Shown here one piece after another: positions 10,734-21,495 of a stretch of DNA of 64,000 nucleotides. The translations under genes and the position numbers were made by a program. The DNA is taken from NCBI GenBank assembly GCA_016234115.1, contig JACRHD010000021.1:26185-90184 (forward strand), read 5' to 3'. Source of the DNA: Nitrospirota bacterium. GTDB taxonomy: Bacteria; Nitrospirota; Thermodesulfovibrionia; UBA6902. Each line of letters begins with the position of its first letter. Position 1 is the first letter of the stretch. The notes beneath the pieces were generated by a model. That model ran no database searches and was not told the origin of the DNA. It was given only the letters and a program-made list of their open reading frames with translations.

Positions 10734-12998
10734 TCAAGATGACTGGAATTGATAATGCCCCGCAACTGCCTGTCCCAGCGATATCCCTCCGTCATTCGGG
10801 GGCACAGTCTGGTGGATCAAGGGAGCAAAGCCCCGCTCTTTCAGGCTTCTGAAGCTCTCTTCAAGCAGGATTACGTTCTGGAACACCCCTCCCGACAGGG
10901 CGACGGTCTTTATCCCGGTTTCATCCCTGATCAGCCCTGAAACATGCAGGACCATCGCGACAATCGTATTGTGGAATTTTCTCGCGAGCTCCTCTTTCGG
11001 GAGCCCCGCCCTCAGGTCATCCACGAGACGGTCGATGACCGGGAGATGGTAGATCATATTGTTTTTGACTATGCAGGGATATGAATCCGCAGTGTCTGAT
11101 TTCAGCGCAGCCTGTTCAAGCGCGATTGCCGCCTGGGCGTGATAAGAGACCTTGTGCGCAAGACCGATCAGCGACGCGACCCCGTCAAAGAGCCTGCCCA
11201 TGCTCGTCGTGACCGGAGAATTGACGCCGTTCTTCAGCATATTGATGAAGAAATCCGTCTCCTGCCGGCCCAGCGGCAGGAGATTGAGCTCCCGCGCCTT
11301 TTCCCCGAAGGCCCCGTACAAAAGCGAAAAGGCCGTCCTGCACGGCTCTTTTACCGCCTTGTCTCCGCCGGGAAGTTTATACGGCTGAAGGTGGTATGCC
11401 CTTTTGAATCCCCGGTAAGAAGCGATGAGGACCTCACCTCCCCATACGGTGTTGTCAGTGCCGAACCCGGCGCCGTCAAAGGCGAAACCGATTATTTCAT
11501 TGTCCGGGGGCGTCCCGTTTTCGGTCATGCAGGACAATATATGGGAATAGTGATGCTGAACTTTGACCAGCATGTCGCCGTAATGTCTTTCACCATATTT
11601 TGTGCTGTAATATCCCGGGTGCATATCGGAGACGACTATGCCGGGTTTCACATCCAGCAACCGCAGAAGATCGGCTATCGTTTCTTCATAAAAACCCGCT
11701 GCAAGGGGAGTGTCCAGATCGCCTATATGCTGGGACAGGAATACCTTGTCATCGATGCCGACCGCTATCGTGCTGTTCATATAGGGTCCCAGCGCGAGGA
11801 CGGGCTTTTTAAATCCGAAGGGGACCGTTACCGGAAGCGGGGCAAAGCCCCTGGAGCGCCTTACCGGGACCTGTCTTTCAGCCGCTATCCTGACGACCGA
11901 GTCGTCGCATCTCCTGACTATGGCCCTGTTGTGAGAAAGAAAATAATCCGCTATGCCGGACAGGCGTCCAAACGCGTCCTCTTCATCCTTTGCCACAGGC
12001 TCATCCGTAATGTTGGCGCTCGTCGCTATAAGAGGTCGTCTGAACTTTTTCAAAATCATATGGTGAAGAGGGGTATAAGGAAGAAAGGCCCCGACCGCGC
12101 TGTTGTCCGGGGAGACCCCTTTTGCAAGCGTCGCGGACTCCTTTTTTCTTACGATGACGATGGGTCTTTCGACGGAGCATATTGCGCGTTCTTCAGCGAC
12201 ATTCAGATAAGCCTCTTTTTTTATAGAGCCGATATTAGGGAACATCACCGCCATCGGTTTTTCTTCGCGGCCTTTCCTCTTTCTAAGCCTGCATACGGTC
12301 TCATCATTTTCGGCGTCGCAGATGAGATGGTATCCTCCGACGCCTTTGACCGCTATAATATAACCTTTACGCAACAGGCTGACCGCCTTTTCAAGGGCCT
12401 CTTCCTTTTCGCAGACCGGTTTGCCGTCACAGTCGTGAAGTCTTATCTTCGGACCGCAGACGTCACATGCGTTGGGCTGGGCATGGAACCTCCTGTCCGA
12501 CGGGAGGTTGTATTCCCTCTCGCACTCAGGACACATCCTGAACTCTTTCATGGACGTATTCTTTCTGTCATACGGAAGTGTGTGGATAATGGTAAAGCGC
12601 GGGCCGCAGTTTGTGCAGTTTGTAAAGGGATAGAGGAACCTCCTGTCCCTCGGGTTTGTGATGTCGCTTAAACATTCTTCGCAGGCAGAGATATCAGGAA
12701 GGATGAGGGCCCTTTTTTCCCCTTCCGCGCTGCTTTCCCGAATTTCAAATTTCTGAAAGCCGGTCTCTTCAAGGAACGCATGCCGGAGGCTGTAGATCCG
12801 GGCAAGGGCCGGTTTTTCTTTATCCGCACGGACAATGAAATCGTCGAGTGTTTCCTTAGCGCCCTCGACTTCCAGCAATACGCCTGACGCGGTGTTTGCG
12901 ACATAGCCTTTCAGTCCCATCTCTTCTGCAAGCCTGTGGACGAAGGGCCTGAAGCCGACCCCCTGGACAAGACCGGTGATGTCGATTTTCAGCCGCAT
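10734..12998 (-). CDS. hypF: [NiFe]-hydrogenase maturation carbamoyltransferase
   Basis: VQGVGFRPF, zinc fingers CEEC/CTNCGPR/CPEC/CDVCGP, QHH.SH, SMGRLFD, PPNDGGISLGQ. Confidence 0.96.
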   Translation of the reverse strand: MRLKIDITGLVQGVGFRPFVHRLAEEMGLKGYVANTASGVLLEVEGAKETLDDFIVRADKEKPALARIYSLRHAFLEETGFQKFEIRESSAEGEKRALILPDISACEECLSDITNPRDRRFLYPFTNCTNCGPRFTIIHTLPYDRKNTSMKEFRMCPECEREYNLPSDRRFHAQPNACDVCGPKIRLHDCDGKPVCEKEEALEKAVSLLRKGYIIAVKGVGGYHLICDAENDETVCRLRKRKGREEKPMAVMFPNIGSIKKEAYLNVAEERAICSVERPIVIVRKKESATLAKGVSPDNSAVGAFLPYTPLHHMILKKFRRPLIATSANITDEPVAKDEEDAFGRLSGIADYFLSHNRAIVRRCDDSVVRIAAERQVPVRRSRGFAPLPVTVPFGFKKPVLALGPYMNSTIAVGIDDKVFLSQHIGDLDTPLAAGFYEETIADLLRLLDVKPGIVVSDMHPGYYSTKYGERHYGDMLVKVQHHYSHILSCMTENGTPPDNEIIGFAFDGAGFGTDNTVWGGEVLIASYRGFKRAYHLQPYKLPGGDKAVKEPCRTAFSLLYGAFGEKARELNLLPLGRQETDFFINMLKNGVNSPVTTSMGRLFDGVASLIGLAHKVSYHAQAAIALEQAALKSDTADSYPCIVKNNMIYHLPVIDRLVDDLRAGLPKEELARKFHNTIVAMVLHVSGLIRDETGIKTVALSGGVFQNVILLEESFRSLKERGFAPLIHQTVPPNDGGISLGQAVAGHYQFQSS

Positions 12999-13051
12999 AC
13001 GGAGCCCAGCGTGTTCTTTTTCCGCAACCTGAGTTTTAATCCCGCCCTGTC

Positions 13052-15514
13052 CTACCTCACCGCCTCCACGTTCACCGCGACGATGGGGCACTCCCCGTTT
13101 ACGGCGAGATGCGTCAGCGCGTGGATCTTGGCGTGCGGGAAATGCGCGGGCACGAAGAGGGTCCCCTCGGGGACGGCGCCTGAATACTTTGCCTTGAGGA
13201 AAACCGAGCCCTGCCTGGAGGACAGCTTCACGTGGCTGTTGTCCAGTACGCCCAGCTTCTTGGCGTCATCCTCATTGATCTCAAGGAGCGCTTCCGAGAT
13301 GACGAGGTCCAGGGACCTGGAGCTGGTCGACATGCTGCCTGAATGCTGCAGGACGTCCCTGATGACGAGATTGAACGGATAAATACCCCCTGTTTCCTCG
13401 CACGGGCCGTATTCAACGGGATTAAAAGCGCTCTTTTTTTCAGGCTCCGGCTTTGCAGTCAGCATGGCCTTGATCTCTTCCTGGATTGCCTGGAGGTTCC
13501 GGCTCCCCATTTCTTTCCCCATGATAAGCGCGAGGTTCTTGAAAATCATCCAGTCGGGCACTGACTCGCCCGAGGGATCGACTAATTTGTGGACCTGCTG
13601 CAGGAGGCCCTCCGCGTTCATGAAGGTGCCGTCCTTCTCCGCCCAGCTCGAGGCCGGCAGTACGACGTGCGCAAGTTTGGCGGTTTCCGTAAAGAAGATA
13701 TCCTGCACCACGAGGAAACTCAGGGCCTTCAGTCTCCTGACGACCTGAGAGCTGTCAGGGAAGGTCACGGCCGGGTCTTCTCCCATGACGTACATCGCCT
13801 TAATGCCGGAGGCTTCATTGTATAGCATCTCTTTCACCCCCGCTCCCGACGGCTGACCGGAAGGCCTTACCCCCATTTGATAGAGACCGAAGGTATTTGA
13901 ATACTCGGCGGGTATCTGAAGTGACCGGGGATCATCACCTAAAAGATGGACCAGGTTGGCTGCGGCAAGGACTGCATCCGACCCCTTTGTGTTTTCAGAC
14001 GCGCTGAGAGACAGCGAGATCATCCTGCTCTTTGCCGAGGCAAGGTCCGTTGCGGCGCTGATGATTTCGTCTTCAGGCACGCCCGTGATCTTTGAAACCT
14101 TTTCAGGGGTATAATTTTCGAGCATGGTCCTTAACGGTTTGAAGCCCGCAACATTCTCTGCATCCTTGCTGAACAGGTTCCTGTCGATAATCACTTTCAT
14201 GAGTCCGTTCAGAAGGGCAATTCCTGTACCGTCCTTCAGCCTCAGCCACTGTGTGCTGTGCCTTGTCAGTTTGGTTTCCCTTGAATCCGCGACAATAAGT
14301 TTGGAACCTTCCCTCTTTGCCTGGAGTATGTTGAGGCCGAATACCGGGTGAGTTACCGAGGTATCCGATTCGATAATCAGGACAACGTCCTTGCCCAGAG
14401 GGGATTTCAGGTTTATGGGATGGGCGTCCCCGCCGAACGCCTTTTCCCAGGCCGTCTGCACCCTGCCGTATCCGAAAGAGGCGGATGAATCGATATTGCC
14501 GGAGCCGACGATCTTTCTCATGAATTTCTGGAGGCTGTAATTGTCTTCGTTGGTGCACCGGGGCGAGCCGATCGCGCCGATGGCGTTTGCGCCGTCATGC
14601 TGAATAATCTGTTTTAAATTGTCGGAGATAAAGGTCAGCGCCTTTTCCCACGAGACTTCTACAAACTCGTTCCCCTGTTTTATAAGAGGGCTTTTGAGCC
14701 TCTTTTCGCTGTAGATATAATCGATGCCGAACCTTCCCCTGCCGCACAGGTTGCCGTCGTTGACGCCCTTGCCCTCAACTCCTTTTGATCTCAGTATCTT
14801 CCCTTCTCTCAATCCGAGGGTGAGGGTGCAGCCGACGCCGCAGAACGGACAGATGGTCTCTTTTTCTTCGAGAAACCATGAGCGCGCGGTAAACTTGTAC
14901 GGCTTGCTCAGTATCGCGCCGGTCGGGCAAATATCGAGACATTGCCCGCAGTAATCGCATTCGAGTATCTCGCCGAAGGCAGGCTGTACAATAGTGGGAA
15001 AGCCCCTGCCGATCAGACCGAGCGCGGCCCTTCCCTGGTGTTCGGCGCATATCCTGACGCATTTGCCGCAGAGGATGCACCTTCTCGAGGTCAGCTCGAT
15101 CAACGGCCCCCTGACGTCGGGCATTGCCTGTTTCCTGTTTCTTAAAAACCGCGAGTGGGGTTTCCCGTACTCATACGCAAGGTCCTGCAGGTCGCACTCT
15201 CCTGCCTTGTCGCATTCCGGGCAGTCAAGGGGATGATGCACCAGAAGCAGCTCGATCACTGTCTGGCGCAGCTTCCTGAGTTTCGGAGTGTCGGTATTGA
15301 TGACCATCCCGTTTTCAGCGGGGGATGAGCACGCGGCAAAGAGCCGCGCCTGTCCCTCTACCTCGACAATGCATAGCCTGCAACCGCCGTAGGGCCTCAG
15401 CCTCTTGTCGGCGCATAGGTTCGGGATGTATATGCCGTTCTTCAGGGACGCCTGAAGAATGGTCGAGCCGTCATCCGCCGTAATCTGTTTACCGTTTATA
15501 GTTAAATTTATCAT
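13052..15514 (-). CDS. NuoG/FdhF-like large subunit (HydA/BfuA-type): 2Fe-2S, four 4Fe-4S, molybdopterin-fold domain lacking the metal-ligating Cys
   Basis: GGCRLC, HHPLDCPECDKAGEC, CILCGKC, CDYCGQC, CPFCGVGC. NIDSSASFG occupies the position of FdhF N.DxCARx(C/U)H. Confidence 0.85.
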   Translation of the reverse strand: MINLTINGKQITADDGSTILQASLKNGIYIPNLCADKRLRPYGGCRLCIVEVEGQARLFAACSSPAENGMVINTDTPKLRKLRQTVIELLLVHHPLDCPECDKAGECDLQDLAYEYGKPHSRFLRNRKQAMPDVRGPLIELTSRRCILCGKCVRICAEHQGRAALGLIGRGFPTIVQPAFGEILECDYCGQCLDICPTGAILSKPYKFTARSWFLEEKETICPFCGVGCTLTLGLREGKILRSKGVEGKGVNDGNLCGRGRFGIDYIYSEKRLKSPLIKQGNEFVEVSWEKALTFISDNLKQIIQHDGANAIGAIGSPRCTNEDNYSLQKFMRKIVGSGNIDSSASFGYGRVQTAWEKAFGGDAHPINLKSPLGKDVVLIIESDTSVTHPVFGLNILQAKREGSKLIVADSRETKLTRHSTQWLRLKDGTGIALLNGLMKVIIDRNLFSKDAENVAGFKPLRTMLENYTPEKVSKITGVPEDEIISAATDLASAKSRMISLSLSASENTKGSDAVLAAANLVHLLGDDPRSLQIPAEYSNTFGLYQMGVRPSGQPSGAGVKEMLYNEASGIKAMYVMGEDPAVTFPDSSQVVRRLKALSFLVVQDIFFTETAKLAHVVLPASSWAEKDGTFMNAEGLLQQVHKLVDPSGESVPDWMIFKNLALIMGKEMGSRNLQAIQEEIKAMLTAKPEPEKKSAFNPVEYGPCEETGGIYPFNLVIRDVLQHSGSMSTSSRSLDLVISEALLEINEDDAKKLGVLDNSHVKLSSRQGSVFLKAKYSGAVPEGTLFVPAHFPHAKIHALTHLAVNGECPIVAVNVEAVR

Positions 15515-15618: not shown

Positions 15619-17454
15619 TTATTTCATTGCCGGTTCCTTTTTCTCTTTAACCGCCGCCGGCCCTATCTCTATGGACCCGAATTTACATGTATCGTAGCAG
15701 GTCCGGCACTGGATGCAGAGTTCCTGGATGATCCTGTGGGGGACCTTCTTTTCCCCGACGATCGCCTTTTGCGGGCAGGCCCGTAAACACGCGCCGCAGG
15801 CCTTGCACAGCTCTTCGTTTATGTGGAAGGAGCAGAGGTTTCTGCATATCCCCGCCTTGCACCAGTGGTCTTTGATGTGGGATTCATATTCATCCCTGAA
15901 GTATCTTATTGTGGAAAGGACCGGATTGGGGGCCGTCTGCCCTAATCCGCAAAGGGAAGTAGCTATAACATCCCTGCTGAAATCTTCGAGGATCTCTATG
16001 TCGCCATCTTTTCCCTTGCCCTCGCAGATATCGGTAAGCATGTCTAACATGACGCGCGTGCCTATCCTGCACGGGGTGCATTTGCCGCAGGACTCATCTG
16101 CCGTAAATTCGAGGAAGAATTTCGCGGTGCTGACCATACAGGTGTCTTCGTCCATGACGACCATGCCGCCTGAACCCATGATCGCGCCTGTCTTGACCAC
16201 GTCTTCATAGGTCACGGGAATCTCTATGAGGCCCATGGGGATACACCCGCCTGAGGGGCCGCCCATCTGCACGGACTTGAATTTCTTCTTTTTGTTTTTC
16301 ATGCCCCCGCCGATGTCATAGATTATCGTCTTAAGCGGGATGCCCATCGGTACTTCGACGAGGCCGACGTTTTTAATATCGCCTGTAAGCGCAAACACCT
16401 TTGTGCCCGCGCTCTTTTCAGTCCCGAGCGTCCTGTACCATTCAGCTCCGTGCAGGATGATCGGGGAAATCTGCGCGAGGGTCTCGACATTGTTCAGGAC
16501 AGAGGGTTTGTCCCATAAGCCCTTGTGGGCAGGGAAAGGCGGCCTCGGCCTCGGCATGCCGCGCTTGCCTTCTATGGAGCGCATAAGGGCGGTCTCTTCG
16601 CCGCACACGAACGCGCCAGCGCCAAGATATATTTCAAGGTCAAAGGCGAAACCGCTGCCGAAGATGTCTTCTCCGAGGAGACCTTTTTCATGGCAATCAT
16701 TGATGGCCTTCTGGAGACGTTTTACTGCAAGCGGGTATTCCGCCCTGACGTATATTACTCCTTTGCTTGAGCCTATCGCCCTTGCGCCTATGATCATTCC
16801 TTCGATGACCGAATGCGGGTCCGCTTCCATGACGGACCTGTCCATGAACGCGCCGGGGTCCCCTTCATCACCGTTACAGAGCATGTATTTCTGGTCTGCC
16901 ACAGACTTTGAAGCGAATTCCCATTTCAATCCCGTGGGGAACCCCGCGCCTCCGCGACCCCTCAGCCCGGAGTCTTTCACTACCTTTATAATGTCCGCGG
17001 GCGTCATTTCCGTAAGGGCCTTTGCGGCAGCCATATATCCGTCCCGGGCAATGTATTCCTCGAGGCTGTCAGGGTCTATCATGCCTTTGTTCCTCAGGAC
17101 CCTCAGGACCTGGTGCTTGAAGAACGGGATCTCGTTCATGGCCGGGATCGCGTGTTTCTTCTCAGGCTCCTTGTAGAGCAGTTTTTCGTAGGGACGCCCT
17201 TTCAGGAAATGCTCTTCAACTAATTTCGGCATTTCATCCACGGTCATTTTCTGATAAAAGATCCCTTCCGGGTAGACGAGCATGACCGGGCCTTCGGCGC
17301 AGAAGCCGTTACAGCCGGTGAGCACTATCTTTATCTCATCCGCAAGCCCCCTCTTTTCAAGCTCCTCCTGCAAGGCGGCCCTGACCTTTGGGGTCCCGCT
17401 CGCAACGCACCCTGTCCCGGCGCACATCAGTAAATTTGTACGAACTTTTTCCAT
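15619..17454 (-). CDS. NuoF/HydB-like NADH/FMN-binding subunit
   Basis: N-terminal thioredoxin-like 2Fe-2S, GRGGAGFP, NGDEGDPGAFMDR, CGEETAL, GGPSGG, ESCGKCTPCR, C-terminal 2x4Fe-4S. Confidence 0.93.
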   Translation of the reverse strand: MEKVRTNLLMCAGTGCVASGTPKVRAALQEELEKRGLADEIKIVLTGCNGFCAEGPVMLVYPEGIFYQKMTVDEMPKLVEEHFLKGRPYEKLLYKEPEKKHAIPAMNEIPFFKHQVLRVLRNKGMIDPDSLEEYIARDGYMAAAKALTEMTPADIIKVVKDSGLRGRGGAGFPTGLKWEFASKSVADQKYMLCNGDEGDPGAFMDRSVMEADPHSVIEGMIIGARAIGSSKGVIYVRAEYPLAVKRLQKAINDCHEKGLLGEDIFGSGFAFDLEIYLGAGAFVCGEETALMRSIEGKRGMPRPRPPFPAHKGLWDKPSVLNNVETLAQISPIILHGAEWYRTLGTEKSAGTKVFALTGDIKNVGLVEVPMGIPLKTIIYDIGGGMKNKKKKFKSVQMGGPSGGCIPMGLIEIPVTYEDVVKTGAIMGSGGMVVMDEDTCMVSTAKFFLEFTADESCGKCTPCRIGTRVMLDMLTDICEGKGKDGDIEILEDFSRDVIATSLCGLGQTAPNPVLSTIRYFRDEYESHIKDHWCKAGICRNLCSFHINEELCKACGACLRACPQKAIVGEKKVPHRIIQELCIQCRTCYDTCKFGSIEIGPAAVKEKKEPAMK

Positions 17455-17474
17455 TTATATTTCTCCTTAATAAA

Positions 17475-17571
17475 GCAAGTAGTTAGTAGTAAGTAGTTAG
17501 TAGTTAGGGGGGGCGCTGGTCTCAAATTCCCATCTTTTCCCTTAACTGCTAACTACTAACTACTTTCTACT
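17475..17571. repeat. Palindromic heptamer element, TAGTAGT family
   Basis: Same arms and GGG...CCCTTAAC junction as 2018-2102. Confidence 0.85.
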
Positions 17572-17575
17572 GTCC

Positions 17576-17959
17576 TTAATATGTTGTCTCGCTCCCTACG
17601 ACCAGGGCGTATTTTTCAACGGGATTGCCGCCGAGGACATGCTCTTTGAATATCTCCCGTATCTTCTCTTTGTTAAGGTCGCCGTATTTTACGGGCGGTT
17701 TATTAAGCAGCTCCACCGTGACCATGGGCTCACGGGCGCAAAGACCTGCGCAGCCTGAAGTCGTGGTAATCACGTCTTCCGCCTTTGACTGGGCTATCTC
17801 ATCGAGCAGCACCGTCATGACTTCCCTCGCGCCGGCCGCGATCCCGCAGGTGCCCATATGGACGGTCACCTTTGCCCTGTAACCGCCTTCTCTAAGGGAA
17901 AAAGTGGCCTTCTGTTTGTCCTTTATCTTCTTCAGGTCTTCAATTGTCAGCCTCGCCAT
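17576..17959 (-). CDS. Thioredoxin-like 2Fe-2S ferredoxin (HydD-type)
   Basis: HMGTCGIAAGA...SGCAGLC..EP. Confidence 0.88.
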   Translation of the reverse strand: MARLTIEDLKKIKDKQKATFSLREGGYRAKVTVHMGTCGIAAGAREVMTVLLDEIAQSKAEDVITTTSGCAGLCAREPMVTVELLNKPPVKYGDLNKEKIREIFKEHVLGGNPVEKYALVVGSETTY

Positions 17960-17971
17960 AAAATCTCCTTT

Positions 17972-18054
17972 GGGTCAAGGGTCAGGGGTCAGAGGTCAAG
18001 CGGCCAGGAAGTACTTTACTTCTTGACCCTTGCCCCATGACCCTTGACCCTGAC
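17972..18054. repeat. Palindromic heptamer element, GGGTCAA family
   Basis: gggtcaa gggtcag gggtcag aggtcaa...ttgaccc ttgcccc atgaccc ttgaccc. Confidence 0.85.
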
Positions 18055-18058
18055 TTTT

Positions 18059-18934
18059 TCACGCGTATTCCTTCAAAATATCCGGCACCTTCTTCGGGTT
18101 CATGGCGCCGTATGTTTCCTCGTCGATAACCATGACCGGCGCCAGCCCGCAGGCCCCGAGGCAGCGGACGGTCTCCAATGAGAATTTCTTGTCTTCCGTC
18201 ACCTCGCCGACATCTATCTTGAGGTCTTCTTTTATCCTGTTCAGGACCTCTTCAACCCTTTTTACGTAACATGCGGTGCCGAGGCAGATCCTGATATTAT
18301 GGTCTCCTCTGGGCTTCATTGTGAAAAAAGAGTAAAAGGAGACGATGCCGTGTATCTCGGCCGGCGTCATGTTCAATCCCTTTGCAATTCGCTTCTGCAC
18401 CTCGGGAGGGAGATATCCGACTATTTGCTGACAGCGCTGAAGCACAGGGATGGAGCTTCCGGGTTTGCTCCTGTACTGGCTTATGACCCTGTCTATCTCC
18501 TGCAGCATTGACGGGGGCAGTTCTTCTTTCTTTTCCTTTGGCTCAAGAGGAGCTTTCTTCTCCCTTATCCAGCTTACCGCCCTCTGGGTCACATCTAACA
18601 GGACGGTCGGGGTAAAAGGCTTCGGAACATAATCTATAATGCCGAGCTCCAGGGCGTCCTTTATCGTGTCCTGGGAAGGATAACCGGTGATTATCACGAC
18701 ACCCGTGTCCGGTCTTTTCTGCCGGATCCATCTTATGAGGGTTATGCCGTCCACTTCAGGCATTTTAAGGTCGGTAAAGACAAGGTCGAAAGGCTGCTGT
18801 TCCATCCGGAGTATCGCGTCTTTCGCGCTCAGCAGTCCCTGGACGTTGTATCCCTCCGACTTAAGGATGCTCTCACAGCTTCTTATTATTATCGGCTCGT
18901 CGTCAACGACCAGTATTTTTAAATCATCAACCAT
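18059..18934 (-). CDS. Response-regulator receiver fused to NuoE/HydC 2Fe-2S subunit
   Basis: REC: VVDDE, TDLKMP, ITG, KPF. NuoE: FYSFF, ICLGTAC, RCLGACGLAP. Confidence 0.9.
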   Translation of the reverse strand: MVDDLKILVVDDEPIIIRSCESILKSEGYNVQGLLSAKDAILRMEQQPFDLVFTDLKMPEVDGITLIRWIRQKRPDTGVVIITGYPSQDTIKDALELGIIDYVPKPFTPTVLLDVTQRAVSWIREKKAPLEPKEKKEELPPSMLQEIDRVISQYRSKPGSSIPVLQRCQQIVGYLPPEVQKRIAKGLNMTPAEIHGIVSFYSFFTMKPRGDHNIRICLGTACYVKRVEEVLNRIKEDLKIDVGEVTEDKKFSLETVRCLGACGLAPVMVIDEETYGAMNPKKVPDILKEYA

Positions 18935-18952
18935 TTAATGTCTCCTCATTAA

Positions 18953-19031
18953 AAGGGTTCAAGGGTTAAGGGTTCGAGGGTTCAAGTGAGGGTCTTACTC
19001 GACCCCTCGAACCCTTAACCCCTTGGACCCT
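18953..19031. repeat. Palindromic 7-8-mer element (GGGTTCAA variant)
   Basis: agggttca agggtta agggttcg agggttca...tcgacccc tcgaaccc ttaacccc ttggaccc. Confidence 0.8.
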
Positions 19032-19034
19032 AAA

Positions 19035-19808
19035 TTAAGTCTGTTCACTTGCCAGCGGCAGCACCCTTGCCAGCCAGAGCAGCCACCCTTCCGACAGGTG
19101 GTCTTTCAGCAGGGCGACCATTACATCGTTTGCCTTCGTATTGATTTCTCTCAGCTCTCCGCTCATGGGCGAATTCAGGTCGCTCACCGGACTGCTGCTT
19201 GCATAAAGCCTTGCGAAAGGCTTTCCGGCTTCCAGACTGTCTATATCCTGCATGAATTCCACATACACGAGATTGCCCGCCAGCATCCAGTACCTGAGGT
19301 CGCAGCCGATCTCCCACAGACCGTCTTTGACCGGCCTGGCCCAGGTGCCTTCTTTATAGAAGATGACCGGGTTTTCCGCGTCCCTGAGGGGGGTCACGGA
19401 GTCCCTGAACTCGTCGATGAAGGCCTGCCTCAGTATCCACCCCCGCGTGTCGAAAACCTTGTTGGCGACATTGATCATGAAGTCCGGAGTAAAGGGCTTT
19501 TCGATATATTCAAACGCGCCGAGGCGTGAAGATTCCCTCGCGTCTTCGAGGGTCGGATAGCCGGTGATGATGACAACGTCCGTCTTGGGCTTGAGGACCC
19601 GCGCCTCCTTCAGCACGGTCATGCCGTTTATATCAGGCAGTCTTACATCCGAGATGAAGAGGTCGAAGTCTTCCCTGGCCAGCTTGTTGAGGGCGTCCTC
19701 TCCTCTTTCCGCGGTCGATATGCTGTATCCTTCGGCGCCAAGAATCCTCTTGCAGCTTAACGTCACGACAGGGTCATCGTCGAGTACTAAAATTCTCCCT
19801 TTTTCCAC
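19035..19808 (-). CDS. Response-regulator receiver fused to glycine-cleavage-H-like domain
   Basis: REC: VLDDD, SDVRLP, ITG, KPF. The C-terminus follows the GcvH pattern (W.R...G...IG, VYVE, G.PF, SP.SG...E.N, EGWL). Confidence 0.8.
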   Translation of the reverse strand: MEKGRILVLDDDPVVTLSCKRILGAEGYSISTAERGEDALNKLAREDFDLFISDVRLPDINGMTVLKEARVLKPKTDVVIITGYPTLEDARESSRLGAFEYIEKPFTPDFMINVANKVFDTRGWILRQAFIDEFRDSVTPLRDAENPVIFYKEGTWARPVKDGLWEIGCDLRYWMLAGNLVYVEFMQDIDSLEAGKPFARLYASSSPVSDLNSPMSGELREINTKANDVMVALLKDHLSEGWLLWLARVLPLASEQT

Positions 19809-19959
19809 TGAGCCACCTTTTCTGAGTGATCATGCGCCCCCCGTCGCCCCAAGGCATCGCAACGGGAAGCGGGAGATTTTGATTAAATAATTTGTTTTCA
19901 AAATCCCCCCGTCTCCCCCTGTTTCAAAGGGGGAAAATATGTGCCGGTGAACTTTTGGG

Positions 19960-20511
19960 CTATTGTAGCATATTGTTTGCAATAATTAGCCATGCACTTA
20001 TATCATCTTTAATAATTTTTATTACTTCGGGGGTGTTCAGGGGAACGCCGTCCAGTTCTTTACGAATGTCGGCGATATTTAAAGTATAAACATCGTCATC
20101 CTTCCGGTGCTCGAAGATAAAGTCGATCTCCGGGTTGGAGGCAATCAGGACTATAAGCGTATTGCAAATGTCCCCGAGCGGTTTCCTGTCCACGTGATCG
20201 CACTGAAAACAGGCGCTGATAGTCGTGCCCTTCCCTTTTTCAGTCTTGATGGTCAAATCCCCGCAGCATTCTCTCGCTGCCTGGGCCAACAGGGGAATCC
20301 CCAACCCGACCTTCCGCACTGTCTTTGTGGTAAAAAAAGGGTCTGTAATTTGTTGGACCGTCTTGCTGTCCATCCCCTTGCCGTTGTCGCTTATTTCAAG
20401 GAGAAGGAGGTTCTTCCCGGTGTCTTCAACGATCTTAATCCTGATTTCCGTAGCGCCCGCGGCTATGGAGTTTTCCGCGATGTCGAGGATGTGTAATGAA
20501 AGGTCCTGCAT
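19960..20511 (-). CDS. Stand-alone HATPase_c protein of the type found in bifurcating hydrogenase operons
   Basis: MQDLSLHILDI.ENS, DNGKGM, DPFFTTK..RKVGLG, HVDR.PLGD; no HisKA domain. Confidence 0.85.
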   Translation of the reverse strand: MQDLSLHILDIAENSIAAGATEIRIKIVEDTGKNLLLLEISDNGKGMDSKTVQQITDPFFTTKTVRKVGLGIPLLAQAARECCGDLTIKTEKGKGTTISACFQCDHVDRKPLGDICNTLIVLIASNPEIDFIFEHRKDDDVYTLNIADIRKELDGVPLNTPEVIKIIKDDISAWLIIANNMLQ

Positions 20512-20814
20512 ACTTTTAAAGCATTATAACAAAAAATGAAGGAGGGGTGTGAATAACCCGGGCAGCATACCTGCGAAGCCCCTAATCGCTAAATTCCCCC
20601 TTTGAAAAAGGGGGATGAAGGGGGATTTTGAAATAAAGGCATCTATCAGAACACCCTCTGTCCGGTTATAATGGCCACTAACGTTTTAATAGGACATCAA
20701 CATCTTCATCAAGGTAGATCGAGATCAACGGACTGAAGGATGGATGATTTTATCAGATCAGAAAATTAGTTCTATCATTTCGCCTTTTTTTGTTTCTTAC
20801 CTGAGATCCGTGAG

Positions 20815-20849
20815 TTGACATAGTGTAGCTTATAAGCTACACTATGTCA
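20815..20849 (+). promoter_or_regulatory. TA promoter with 34-bp perfect palindromic operator
   Basis: TTGACA (20815-20820)-N17-TACACT (20838-20843). TGACATAGTGTAGCTTATAAGCTACACTATGTCA (20816-20849) is self-complementary. Confidence 0.85.
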
Positions 20850-21191
20850 TGCGGGCATTTCCACTTGAACTTGAATATTATGTCAGCGCAACCGGCAAGA
20901 TACCTTTTAAGGAATGGCTCGAAGGGCTTCGGGATATTTTCTGCCAGAGCTAAGATACGCGTCAGACTCGATCGCGTGAGGCTTGGCAATGTCGGTGATA
21001 ACCGCGCCGTCGGCGAAGGCGTCAGTGAACTGAAGATCGACTATGGTCCAGGGTATAGAGTTTATTTTGCCCGGGAAAGTGCCCGTATCATCCTTCTTCT
21101 CCTCGGGGGAGACAAGTCGGGGCAGAAGAAAGATATTCAAACACCAAAAGAATACTGGAATGATCACAAAACGAGGAGAAAACATGCCTAA
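20849..21191 (+). pseudogene. RelE/ParE-family addiction-module toxin, frameshifted
   Basis: ATG 20849 gives MRAFPLELEYYVSATGKIPFKEWLEGLRDI then a stop at 20951. Removing one T from 20937-20940 joins it to SARAKIRVRLDRVRLGN.GD...ELKIDYGPGYRVYF...GGDK. Confidence 0.75.
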
Positions 21192-21495
21192 GACATCTTC
21201 TTATCAAAAAGACCTGATCGAGTCGCTTAAAGACCCGTGTGAGGCCGCGGCTTATCTTAACGCTGCCATTGAGGAGGGAGACCGCTCTGTTTTCCTGCTG
21301 GCTTTGCGCAATGTGGCAGAGGCGCACGGCGGGATGGCCGCCCTCGCGGAAAAGGCAAACCTTAGCCGCGAAAGCCTCTACAGGATGCTCTCAAAAAAAG
21401 GCAATCCGGAGATCAAGAGCCTTTACACGCTCCTTCATGCCATGGGGTTGCGGCTTGCCATAGAGGCCGAGCCGAATACCTGCGAAGCCGCCTGA
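21184..21495 (+). CDS. Addiction-module antidote (HTH antitoxin)
   Basis: AAAYLNAA.E.GD...LALRNVA.A.GGMA.LA....LSRESLYR.LS..GNP; overlaps the toxin stop; GGAG RBS. Confidence 0.9.
   Translation: MPKTSSYQKDLIESLKDPCEAAAYLNAAIEEGDRSVFLLALRNVAEAHGGMAALAEKANLSRESLYRMLSKKGNPEIKSLYTLLHAMGLRLAIEAEPNTCEAA

Follow-up and report, generated by a model that had tools for sequence, protein, structure and literature searches.

A response-regulator receiver fused to the NuoE/BfuC subunit of a Bfu-type module in Nitrospirota and its possible link to complex I

Two-component systems are known chiefly for switching transcription, motility, and second-messenger enzymes. The closest known receiver in an NADH-dehydrogenase complex, as far as the accessible passages of two papers go, is MSMEG_2064/Rv3143, an orphan response regulator that forms a subunit of mycobacterial complex I (PMC10068793, PMC9274095), and in the available part of one of them the MSMEG_2064 authors describe a complex I with a receiver subunit as unique to mycobacteria (PMC10068793). 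On the enzyme side, a complex I carrying a BfuABC head, termed “Nuo-Bfu,” was predicted by Schut et al. in 2022 and assigned to BfuB clades 38 and 39, the latter from Planctomycetes and Nitrospirae, according to the portions of that article available to us (PMC9304861). Here, we describe a gene in which a response-regulator receiver (REC) is fused directly to a NuoE/BfuC-type [2Fe-2S] subunit, encoded in a 64,000-nucleotide stretch (hereafter the window) of a Nitrospirota bacterium (GenBank assembly GCA_016234115.1, contig JACRHD010000021.1, positions 26,185 to 90,184). The fusion is real, conserved, and unstudied. No description of a receiver fused to NuoE, HydC, or BfuC was found in the searchable literature, subscription journals and supplements being outside its scope; the main text of PMC9304861 does not mention a receiver, response regulator, CheY, or histidine kinase, nor does the main text of PMC11406978 mention a receiver, response regulator, or CheY.

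The fusion, referred to as REC-NuoE or REC-BfuC, is a single open reading frame (ORF) on the minus strand, with an ATG start and a frame free of stops, and a GAGGAG Shine-Dalgarno-like motif lies 8 nt 5' of the start. Its N-terminal part matches Pfam Response_reg (PF00072) over residues 7-114 with an E-value of 2.2e-29 and 102.3 bits against a cut-off of 30.2, while its C-terminal part matches 2Fe-2S_thioredx (PF01257) over residues 147-290 with an E-value of 2.2e-50 and 170.7 bits against a cut-off of 24.8, the latter match spanning positions 1-144 of the 145 in the profile. The receiver presents the active-site residues D11-D12, D55 (within FTDLKMP), T83 (IITGY), and K105-P106 (PKPF), and the NuoE domain presents the cluster cysteines C217, C222, C258, and C262; the two are joined by a Lys/Glu-rich linker, residues 115-146, which reads EKKAPLEPKEKKEELPP. 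Two extra cysteines, at positions 20 and 168, are not conserved among orthologues. A preliminary description of this DNA had claimed a canonical, intact receiver (DD, phospho-Asp in TDLKMP, T, and KP) in one continuous ORF with a charged linker and a complete NuoE with four cysteines; all the receiver motifs were found, with Pfam scores far above the cut-off, and the translation together with the Pfam matches bears out the remaining architecture. Five NuoE paralogues occur in the source genome, and a receiver is present on REC-NuoE only, while databases name the fusion either “response regulator” or “NAD(P)H-dependent oxidoreductase subunit E.”

To describe its conservation, we rely on a set of 80 related genome loci, many of them cut by contig ends, retrieved by scanning one genome per species, which together with the window protein make up 81 sequences. 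A full-length REC-NuoE orthologue is present in all 80 loci, at 55-88% identity and nearly always in records titled Nitrospirota or Thermodesulfovibrionia. All 81 sequences share D55, P59, T83, K105, P106, and the four cluster cysteines, and D11 and D12 are both Asp in 80, the remaining sequence being truncated at its N-terminus. Across the alignment, mean identity to the window protein amounts to 69.5% for the receiver, 71.2% for the NuoE domain, and 45.6% for the linker, whose length ranges from 27 to 35 residues. This sequence comparison supports the same purifying selection acting on receiver and enzyme domain.

A misassembled junction, the concern raised in the preliminary description, or a missed stop would make the fusion an assembly or gene-calling artefact, a reading to which we give practically no credence. 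The same single ORF is found in 80 independent assemblies, both Pfam domains are present in 120 of the best 120 database relatives (73-90% identity), and no in-frame stop exists. Besides, the linker DNA (nt 18497-18592) is bridged by a 2472-nt contig from run X1, which may be the source sample, and by a 197-nt contig from run X3, another sample of the same study, so that the fusion stands.

In a sample of 401 genomes of the phylum, counted by hand and with a best E-value of 4e-84 or lower defining a full-length match, the full-length fusion is present in about 82 of the 135 genomes of the same class and in 0 of the 266 from other classes, where matches are confined to the NuoE part. More distant fusions exist as well: of 19 representatives scanned from a library clustered at 50% identity, 16 contain both domains, down to 30% identity, and a profile built from ten distant fusions recovered both domains in 120 of its top 120 matches. 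The acceptor Asp is kept in most of these distant proteins, being Tyr in P0127 and Glu in P0130, and altered acidic pairs occur in some of them; the proteins with a changed acceptor or acidic pair include P0127, P0130, P0170, and P0183. As a separate observation, one related cluster encodes, in addition to the fusion, a stand-alone receiver (L076:5491-5868) that is 59% identical to the receiver of REC-NuoE (residues 1-126), a hint that the fused receiver arose by duplication.

The AlphaFold2 (AF2) model of REC-NuoE, built from 78 sequences, comprises two confident domains, with a mean predicted local distance difference test score (pLDDT) of 91.2 and a predicted template modelling score (pTM) of 0.48. 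Residues 1-120 are modelled as five strands alternating with five helices (pLDDT 84-98), that is, the receiver is predicted to adopt the (beta-alpha)5 fold. Helix 5 reaches residue 127, residues 129-135 fall below a pLDDT of 50, and in the model the receiver is tethered by a flexible linker with no fixed contact to the NuoE part. The best solved relative of the NuoE part is the NiFe hydrogenase subunit C (7t2r_C, E-value 5.9e-43), and those of the receiver part are NtrC1/DctD-type receivers (3dzd, 1ny5, 1zy2). The preliminary description had tied a possible phospho-switch to the motion of the HydC domain during bifurcation. Movement of the HydC/BfuC domain does belong to the proposed bifurcation mechanisms, as the accessible passages of Schut et al. 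2022 (PMC9304861) agree; the mobile part in the published model, however, is the C-terminal domain, whereas the receiver sits on the N-terminus via a flexible linker, and therefore a direct mechanical link from the receiver to the mobile domain is not evident.

The genes that follow the fusion identify the enzyme to which it belongs (Table 1). BfuB carries an N-terminal [2Fe-2S] domain and a C-terminal 2x[4Fe-4S] domain in Pfam, aligns over residues 4-595 with 7t2r_B, the solved bifurcating NiFe-HydB (E-value 2.3e-247), and matches all five ligands of the B2 cluster of that chain (C438, C476, H525, C531, and C536). The ligand list is that of Schut et al. 2022, in whose available passages the B2 His is present in all but 8 of 1558 BfuB sequences and absent from non-bifurcating homologues (PMC9304861). 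The B2 ligands and the extra cluster domains of BfuB therefore make the core Bfu-type. Judged from its residues, the module is of the electron-bifurcating/confurcating (Bfu) NuoEFG-like type, with the activity itself being a prediction.

The third subunit, BfuA, contains Molybdopterin, Molybdop_Fe4S4, and Molydop_binding domains in Pfam and carries a domain of the molybdenum-bis-pyranopterin-guanine-dinucleotide (Mo-bisPGD) type, while no Fe-hydrogenase or H-cluster domain was found in it by Pfam and HydA chains match only its first ~205 residues. An [FeFe] hydrogenase (HydABC) is thus ruled out, as the third subunit has no H-cluster domain. A formate dehydrogenase (FDH) identity for the 820-aa subunit, of the FdsABG or Fdh-Bfu type 1 kind, is ruled out by the absence of the Cys-His pair: in the alignment to FdsA, ASFGY stands opposite ARVCH, without the catalytic Cys/Sec-His (Sec, selenocysteine), and at this site all 58 orthologues have Gly, followed by Tyr in 55 of them. 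Against the NCBIfam NuoG model, BfuA scores 463.3 versus a cut-off of 470.05, over profile positions 1-606 of 606. Of the NuoE/HydC label first given to the fusion, the complete NuoE/BfuC domain is retained and the HydABC affiliation is not; “HydC” is strictly wrong and “BfuC of a NuoEFG-like module” is right, because BfuA lacks an H-cluster and BfuB is Bfu-type.

In the related loci, the operon forms a conserved block, with full-length orthologues of a REC-GcvH-like protein in 67 of 80, REC-NuoE in 80, a small ferredoxin (Fd) in 76, BfuB in 67, and BfuA in 57, the ferredoxin gene sitting between REC-NuoE and NuoF in all 76. No conserved catalytic partner gene was found beside the operon among the 80 loci. 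A nuoB and/or nuoD gene, at least 67% identical to that of the source genome, lies in the flank of 35 loci, and canonical nuoE-F-G follow nuoD in at least 23 relatives. In two relatives, the module is embedded among the nuo genes. In L035, the genes all lie on one strand in the order nuoB, nuoD, kinase, REC, REC-nuoE, Fd, bfuB, bfuA, a cassette of further genes, and nuoH, such that the module fills the nuoEFG slot; a canonical NuoF was not found in this genome, whose completeness is uncertain, the best match being 50% identical and lying in a 596-aa ORF. In L076, the order is nuoD, kinase, sigma-54 regulator, REC-GcvH-like, REC, cassette, REC-nuoE, Fd, bfuB, and bfuA, followed by canonical nuoE, nuoF, and nuoG. 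Genome G405 (locus L021) has no canonical NuoF either and was not counted, as a 100-N gap follows the fusion gene and neither bfuB nor bfuA lies downstream; the gap (L021:9162-9261), in a record titled as the chromosome of a metagenome-assembled genome (MAG), is probably a scaffolding gap or a misjoin.

The kinase present in both gene strings is a HAMP-HisKA-HATPase protein with an orthologue in 41 of the 80 loci, which in the source genome lies on contig C10 at ~16500-18430 (L089:11538-13427). The segment between its two membrane helices contains CXXCH in 38 and CX4CH in 38 of the 39 near-full-length orthologues, motifs that we take to bind haem c, and the kinase is a probable di-haem periplasmic redox sensor. 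The distant fusions (30-50% identity) show a comparable arrangement: among five metagenome contexts examined, there are four (L102, L106, L108, and L116) in which a HisKA kinase gene immediately precedes those for REC-NuoE and BfuB, and the fifth is cut by a contig end. The kinase, with a sensor domain of Cache, GAF, or HAMP type, is followed by a sigma-54 response regulator in L102, L106, and L108 and by a single REC in L116. Thus, the fusion goes with a kinase in more than one lineage, and such a co-inherited kinase could feed the receiver by phosphotransfer.

Table 1. Features of the REC-BfuC operon and of the fusion gene, in window coordinates
Feature	Position (nt)	Strand	Basis
REC-BfuC (REC-NuoE) fusion gene, 291 aa	18059-18934	(-)	ORF and translation, Pfam
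REC domain, aa 7-114	18593-18916	(-)	Pfam Response_reg
Linker, aa 115-146	18497-18592	(-)	Between the two Pfam domains
NuoE-type [2Fe-2S] domain, aa 147-290	18065-18496	(-)	Pfam 2Fe-2S_thioredx
HATPase_c-only protein, 183 aa, first operon gene here	19960-20511	(-)	Pfam HATPase_c 8-102
REC-GcvH-like protein, 257 aa, directly upstream of the fusion	19035-19808	(-)	Pfam Response_reg 6-113, GCV_H 150-246
Small thioredoxin-like [2Fe-2S] ferredoxin, 127 aa	17576-17959	(-)	Weak Pfam 2Fe-2S_thioredx, E 1.5e-4, below cut-off
BfuB, NuoF-type flavoprotein, 611 aa	15619-17454	(-)	Pfam; alignment to 7t2r_B
BfuA, NuoG/FdhA-like, 820 aa	13052-15514	(-)	Pfam; NCBIfam NuoG; FdsA alignment
hypF, carbamoyltransferase HypF, directly downstream	10734-13091	(-)	NCBIfam TIGR00143, 824 bits

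The reading that we favour, with our confidence split about evenly for and against it, is that the module serves as a phosphorylation-controlled second input head for complex I, and in some relatives as the only one. It takes as its observed basis the fusion and its conservation, the Bfu signature, the lost FDH active site, and the synteny with kinase and nuo genes. In this scheme, the kinase would sense a periplasmic redox signal via its haem-c outer domain and phosphorylate receivers, among them D55 of REC-BfuC, and the phosphorylated receiver would switch, post-translationally, the activity of the module, its oligomeric state or dimerisation, or its docking. This control would run parallel to transcriptional control by the sigma-54 regulator of some clusters, and the module (REC-BfuC, Fd, BfuB, and BfuA) would oxidise NADH and reduced ferredoxin and hand electrons to complex I. 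The phosphotransfer from the kinase, the substrates, the docking to complex I, and the effect of phosphorylation are thus what we infer, and the fusion suggests that the entry of respiratory electrons may be governed by a sensor kinase acting on the protein itself. A bolder version, which we consider unlikely, holds that complex I takes either the canonical NADH-only NuoEFG or the ferredoxin- and NADH-confurcating REC-BfuABC, and that the di-haem kinase decides which head is attached or active by phosphorylating REC-BfuC and the REC-GcvH-like protein; if true, the energetic input of the proton pump would be switched within seconds without new protein synthesis.

Several observations weigh against a phosphorylation-controlled head for complex I. 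The module is unlinked from nuo in the source genome, where nuo has its own canonical EFG; since canonical NuoEFG is present here and in at least 23 relatives, a second head is not needed for NADH oxidation. No nuo gene lies in the flank of 45 of the 80 loci, many of which are cut by contig ends, and BfuA shares only 36% identity with the canonical NuoG of the source genome. Pfam found no HisKA kinase in the window, and the only ATPase of the operon has no phospho-acceptor domain. The degenerate acceptor of some distant fusions (P0127, P0130) implies that a receiver on BfuC can persist without phosphorylation, and with no fixed REC-NuoE contact in the AF2 model (pTM 0.48), no mechanism can be derived from the structure.

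The separation from nuo in the source genome, and the canonical EFG that nuo has there, would be expected of a soluble, stand-alone Bfu enzyme that uses NADH, ferredoxin, and a third partner or substrate at or behind BfuA and does not dock to complex I, with the receiver regulating it by phosphorylation and the proximity to nuo reflecting co-regulation alone. The 45 loci without a flanking nuo gene would fit too, as would the best solved relatives of BfuC and BfuB, which are soluble NiFe hydrogenase subunits, the hypF gene that follows the operon here, and the distant fusions of L106 and L108, where the clusters are small and the only BfuA-like gene is a short 2Fe-2S one; many BfuB clades, moreover, have no assigned function in the available text of Schut et al. 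(PMC9304861). We nevertheless judge this explanation rather unlikely, as the module lies among the nuo genes in L035 and L076, the 80 loci show neither a conserved catalytic partner gene beside the operon nor any hypF, and BfuA lacks the FDH Cys-His and comes near the NuoG cut-off over the whole model.

Information might also flow in reverse, the receiver on BfuC acting as a phosphate sink or feedback sensor, such that the redox state or occupancy of the enzyme alters how fast the receiver gains or loses phosphate and thereby tunes the other outputs of the kinase, namely the single REC and the sigma-54 regulator, instead of the enzyme. The branched clusters, in which one kinase faces between two and four receivers (a single REC, REC-GcvH-like, REC-NuoE, and, in some clusters, the sigma-54 regulator), would suit this arrangement, and so would the AF2 model, which offers the receiver no fixed intramolecular contact through which to act on the cluster domain. 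The conserved linker length (27-35 residues), however, would be explained equally well or better by a positional role on the complex, and we hold reverse flow to be quite improbable. That the receiver is a structural, assembly, or dimerisation domain only, pseudo-receiver-like and never phosphorylated, seems very doubtful. The Tyr or Glu acceptors and altered acidic pairs of the distant fusions (P0127, P0130, P0170, and P0183) point that way, as does the mycobacterial complex I receiver subunit, whose Asp63 is occluded when bound according to the accessible part of PMC10068793; the invariance of D11, D12, D55, T83, and K105 in 80-81 sequences at 55-88% identity is nonetheless hard to explain without phosphochemistry, and a HisKA kinase is co-inherited.

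The arrangement of the source genome bears on the missing linkage. The supercluster is split there, the window lying on contig C1 and the nuo operon with the kinase half on contig C10. The nuo operon of C10 encodes a canonical NuoE of 154 aa, NuoF of 414 aa, and NuoG of 857 aa, and divergent from it lie genes for the kinase, a 129-aa receiver, DRTGG, HATPase_c_2, an unknown protein, and PHP. In the close relative L013, the kinase and cassette genes and the REC-Bfu operon are contiguous. More generally, the cassette, consisting of DRTGG, HATPase_c_2, a 110-aa unknown protein, PHP, and the 183-aa HATPase, has members in 31-40 of the 80 loci, with a full-length orthologue of the 183-aa HATPase in 40, upstream or a few genes downstream; the clusters of relatives also hold a single receiver, and a sigma-54 activator occurs in 17 of 80. 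In the window, an addiction-module antidote gene and then unrelated genes precede the operon. This antidote, of the HI1420 type (150-aa ORF, 20844-21495, plus strand), lies upstream of the 183-aa HATPase exactly at the synteny break; it may belong to a mobile toxin-antitoxin cassette that marks where a rearrangement divided the supercluster.

Other contigs of the genome carry related enzymes. The two real FDH genes lie on contigs C56 and C52, and in each the alpha subunit is split where Sec is expected. The C52 genes (L092:2794-8431) form a second Bfu-type set, with a NuoE of 157 aa and a BfuB of 609 aa, in which the two ORFs of FDH alpha fit an in-frame Sec codon; between BfuB and FdhA lies a gene for a 153-aa cyclic-nucleotide-binding-domain protein, another signalling domain in a Bfu operon. 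On contig C22 (L090:3732-13473), a NuoE/NuoF-like/NuoG-like set adjoins carbon monoxide dehydrogenase/acetyl-CoA synthase (CODH/ACS) genes of the Prismane and CdhC families, which suggests a Bfu-type partner of Wood-Ljungdahl enzymes. Meanwhile, contig C51 (L096:11122-18594) encodes a Nuo-like membrane complex without E, F, and G, comprising a NuoB-like subunit, a fused NuoC/D-like subunit of 533 aa, a NuoH-like subunit, and two antiporter-like subunits; this complex may be of the group-4 hydrogenase type or headless, and could be an alternative partner for the REC-Bfu module.

Among the remaining operon genes, the REC-GcvH-like protein contains a second receiver, with D10-D12, D54, T82, and K104 conserved, and a GCV_H domain matched at 32.4 bits versus a cut-off of 22.2. 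It has no lipoyl-lysine, as Ser stands opposite the Lys of E. coli GcvH (ESVKA), at a position that is variable in 68 sequences. AF2 models it as a receiver plus a beta-rich domain (pLDDT 83.8, pTM 0.51), and a fold search started from the full model brought up mainly receiver structures, which gave no information on the C-terminal domain. The 183-aa HATPase has the GHKL ATP-binding fold with conserved ENS, DNGxG, and GLG motifs and no HisKA/DHp part; it is unlikely to be the kinase of the receiver, given the absence of a HisKA domain in Pfam. A link to [NiFe] hydrogenase through hypF was rejected, as hypF occurs in none of the 80 related loci; its presence is explained by the [NiFeSe] hydrogenase encoded on contig C24, and it is probably a lineage-specific neighbour rather than part of the system. 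The 40-nt overlap of the hypF and BfuA genes may reflect an early GTG start, because the Pfam match of hypF begins at residue 35.

Upstream of the operon, inspection by eye gave no clear match to a sigma-54 promoter, no formal scan having been made. The intergenic DNA has a feature of its own: G+C-rich palindromes occupy all the intergenic regions of the operon (17960-18058, 18935-19034, 19809-19959, and 20512-20700), and the element between the two receiver genes (18935-19034) has a predicted RNA fold of -55.8 kcal/mol with a z-score of -7.3. Short or partial copies are dispersed over many other contigs, each intergenic region giving 16-81 BLAST matches, and contig depth is raised in these regions. 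The elements resemble repetitive extragenic palindromic (REP)-like repeats, and an effect on the processing of the operon mRNA is possible.

The fusion places a receiver covalently in a flavin/iron-sulfur core, at cluster C1 of BfuC, which is treated as a gate in proposed bifurcation mechanisms. If phosphorylated, it would let an environmental sensor govern, directly and quickly, how electrons enter a respiratory or bifurcating complex. The fusion is common, being present in most sampled genomes of one sulfate-reducing Nitrospirota class and in divergent metagenome families, and it comes with a defined candidate kinase; therefore, the question of whether Bfu enzymes or complex I are regulated post-translationally can be addressed with standard biochemical assays. 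The positions of the module in L035 and L076, within the nuo genes, also matter for Nuo-Bfu, which is still an unproven hypothesis.

Compared with solved structures, the NuoE domain resembles BfuC/HydC chains (7t2r chain C; HydABC 8a6t, 7q4v, and 7p5h chain C; NfnABC 9n5u chain C) in its NuoE-type fold and four C1 cysteines, and, as in the solved Bfu enzymes, it is paired with a BfuB that has additional cluster domains at both ends as well as the B2 ligands. Unlike REC-NuoE, those chains have 154-189 residues and align only with residues 138-291 of the fusion, none with the receiver, and, unlike the solved enzymes, the module here has a third subunit without an H-cluster and without a partner NiFe dimer. 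The receiver resembles the NtrC1/DctD type, the match to A. aeolicus NtrC1 (3dzd) covering residues 6-154 and so running into the linker, with helix 5 predicted to residue 127; its output, however, is an iron-sulfur enzyme subunit rather than an AAA+ sigma-54 activator. NtrC1 dimerises through helix 5, which offers a lead.

The module is like Nuo-Bfu in combining BfuABC with a NuoG-like A subunit in a Nitrospirota lineage and, in the relative L035, in occupying the nuoEFG slot. It differs in being unlinked from nuo here, alongside a canonical NuoEFG, and a physical association with Nuo is a prediction only. MSMEG_2064/Rv3143 is comparable in being a receiver, there a single-domain protein, that forms part of an NADH-dehydrogenase complex; it is encoded with nuo genes, and control by phosphorylation has been proposed for it in the accessible passages of PMC10068793. 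Unlike REC-NuoE, in which the receiver is part of the [2Fe-2S] subunit, MSMEG_2064/Rv3143 is, in the same passages, a separate protein located next to NuoB at the junction of the two arms of the complex (PMC10068793).

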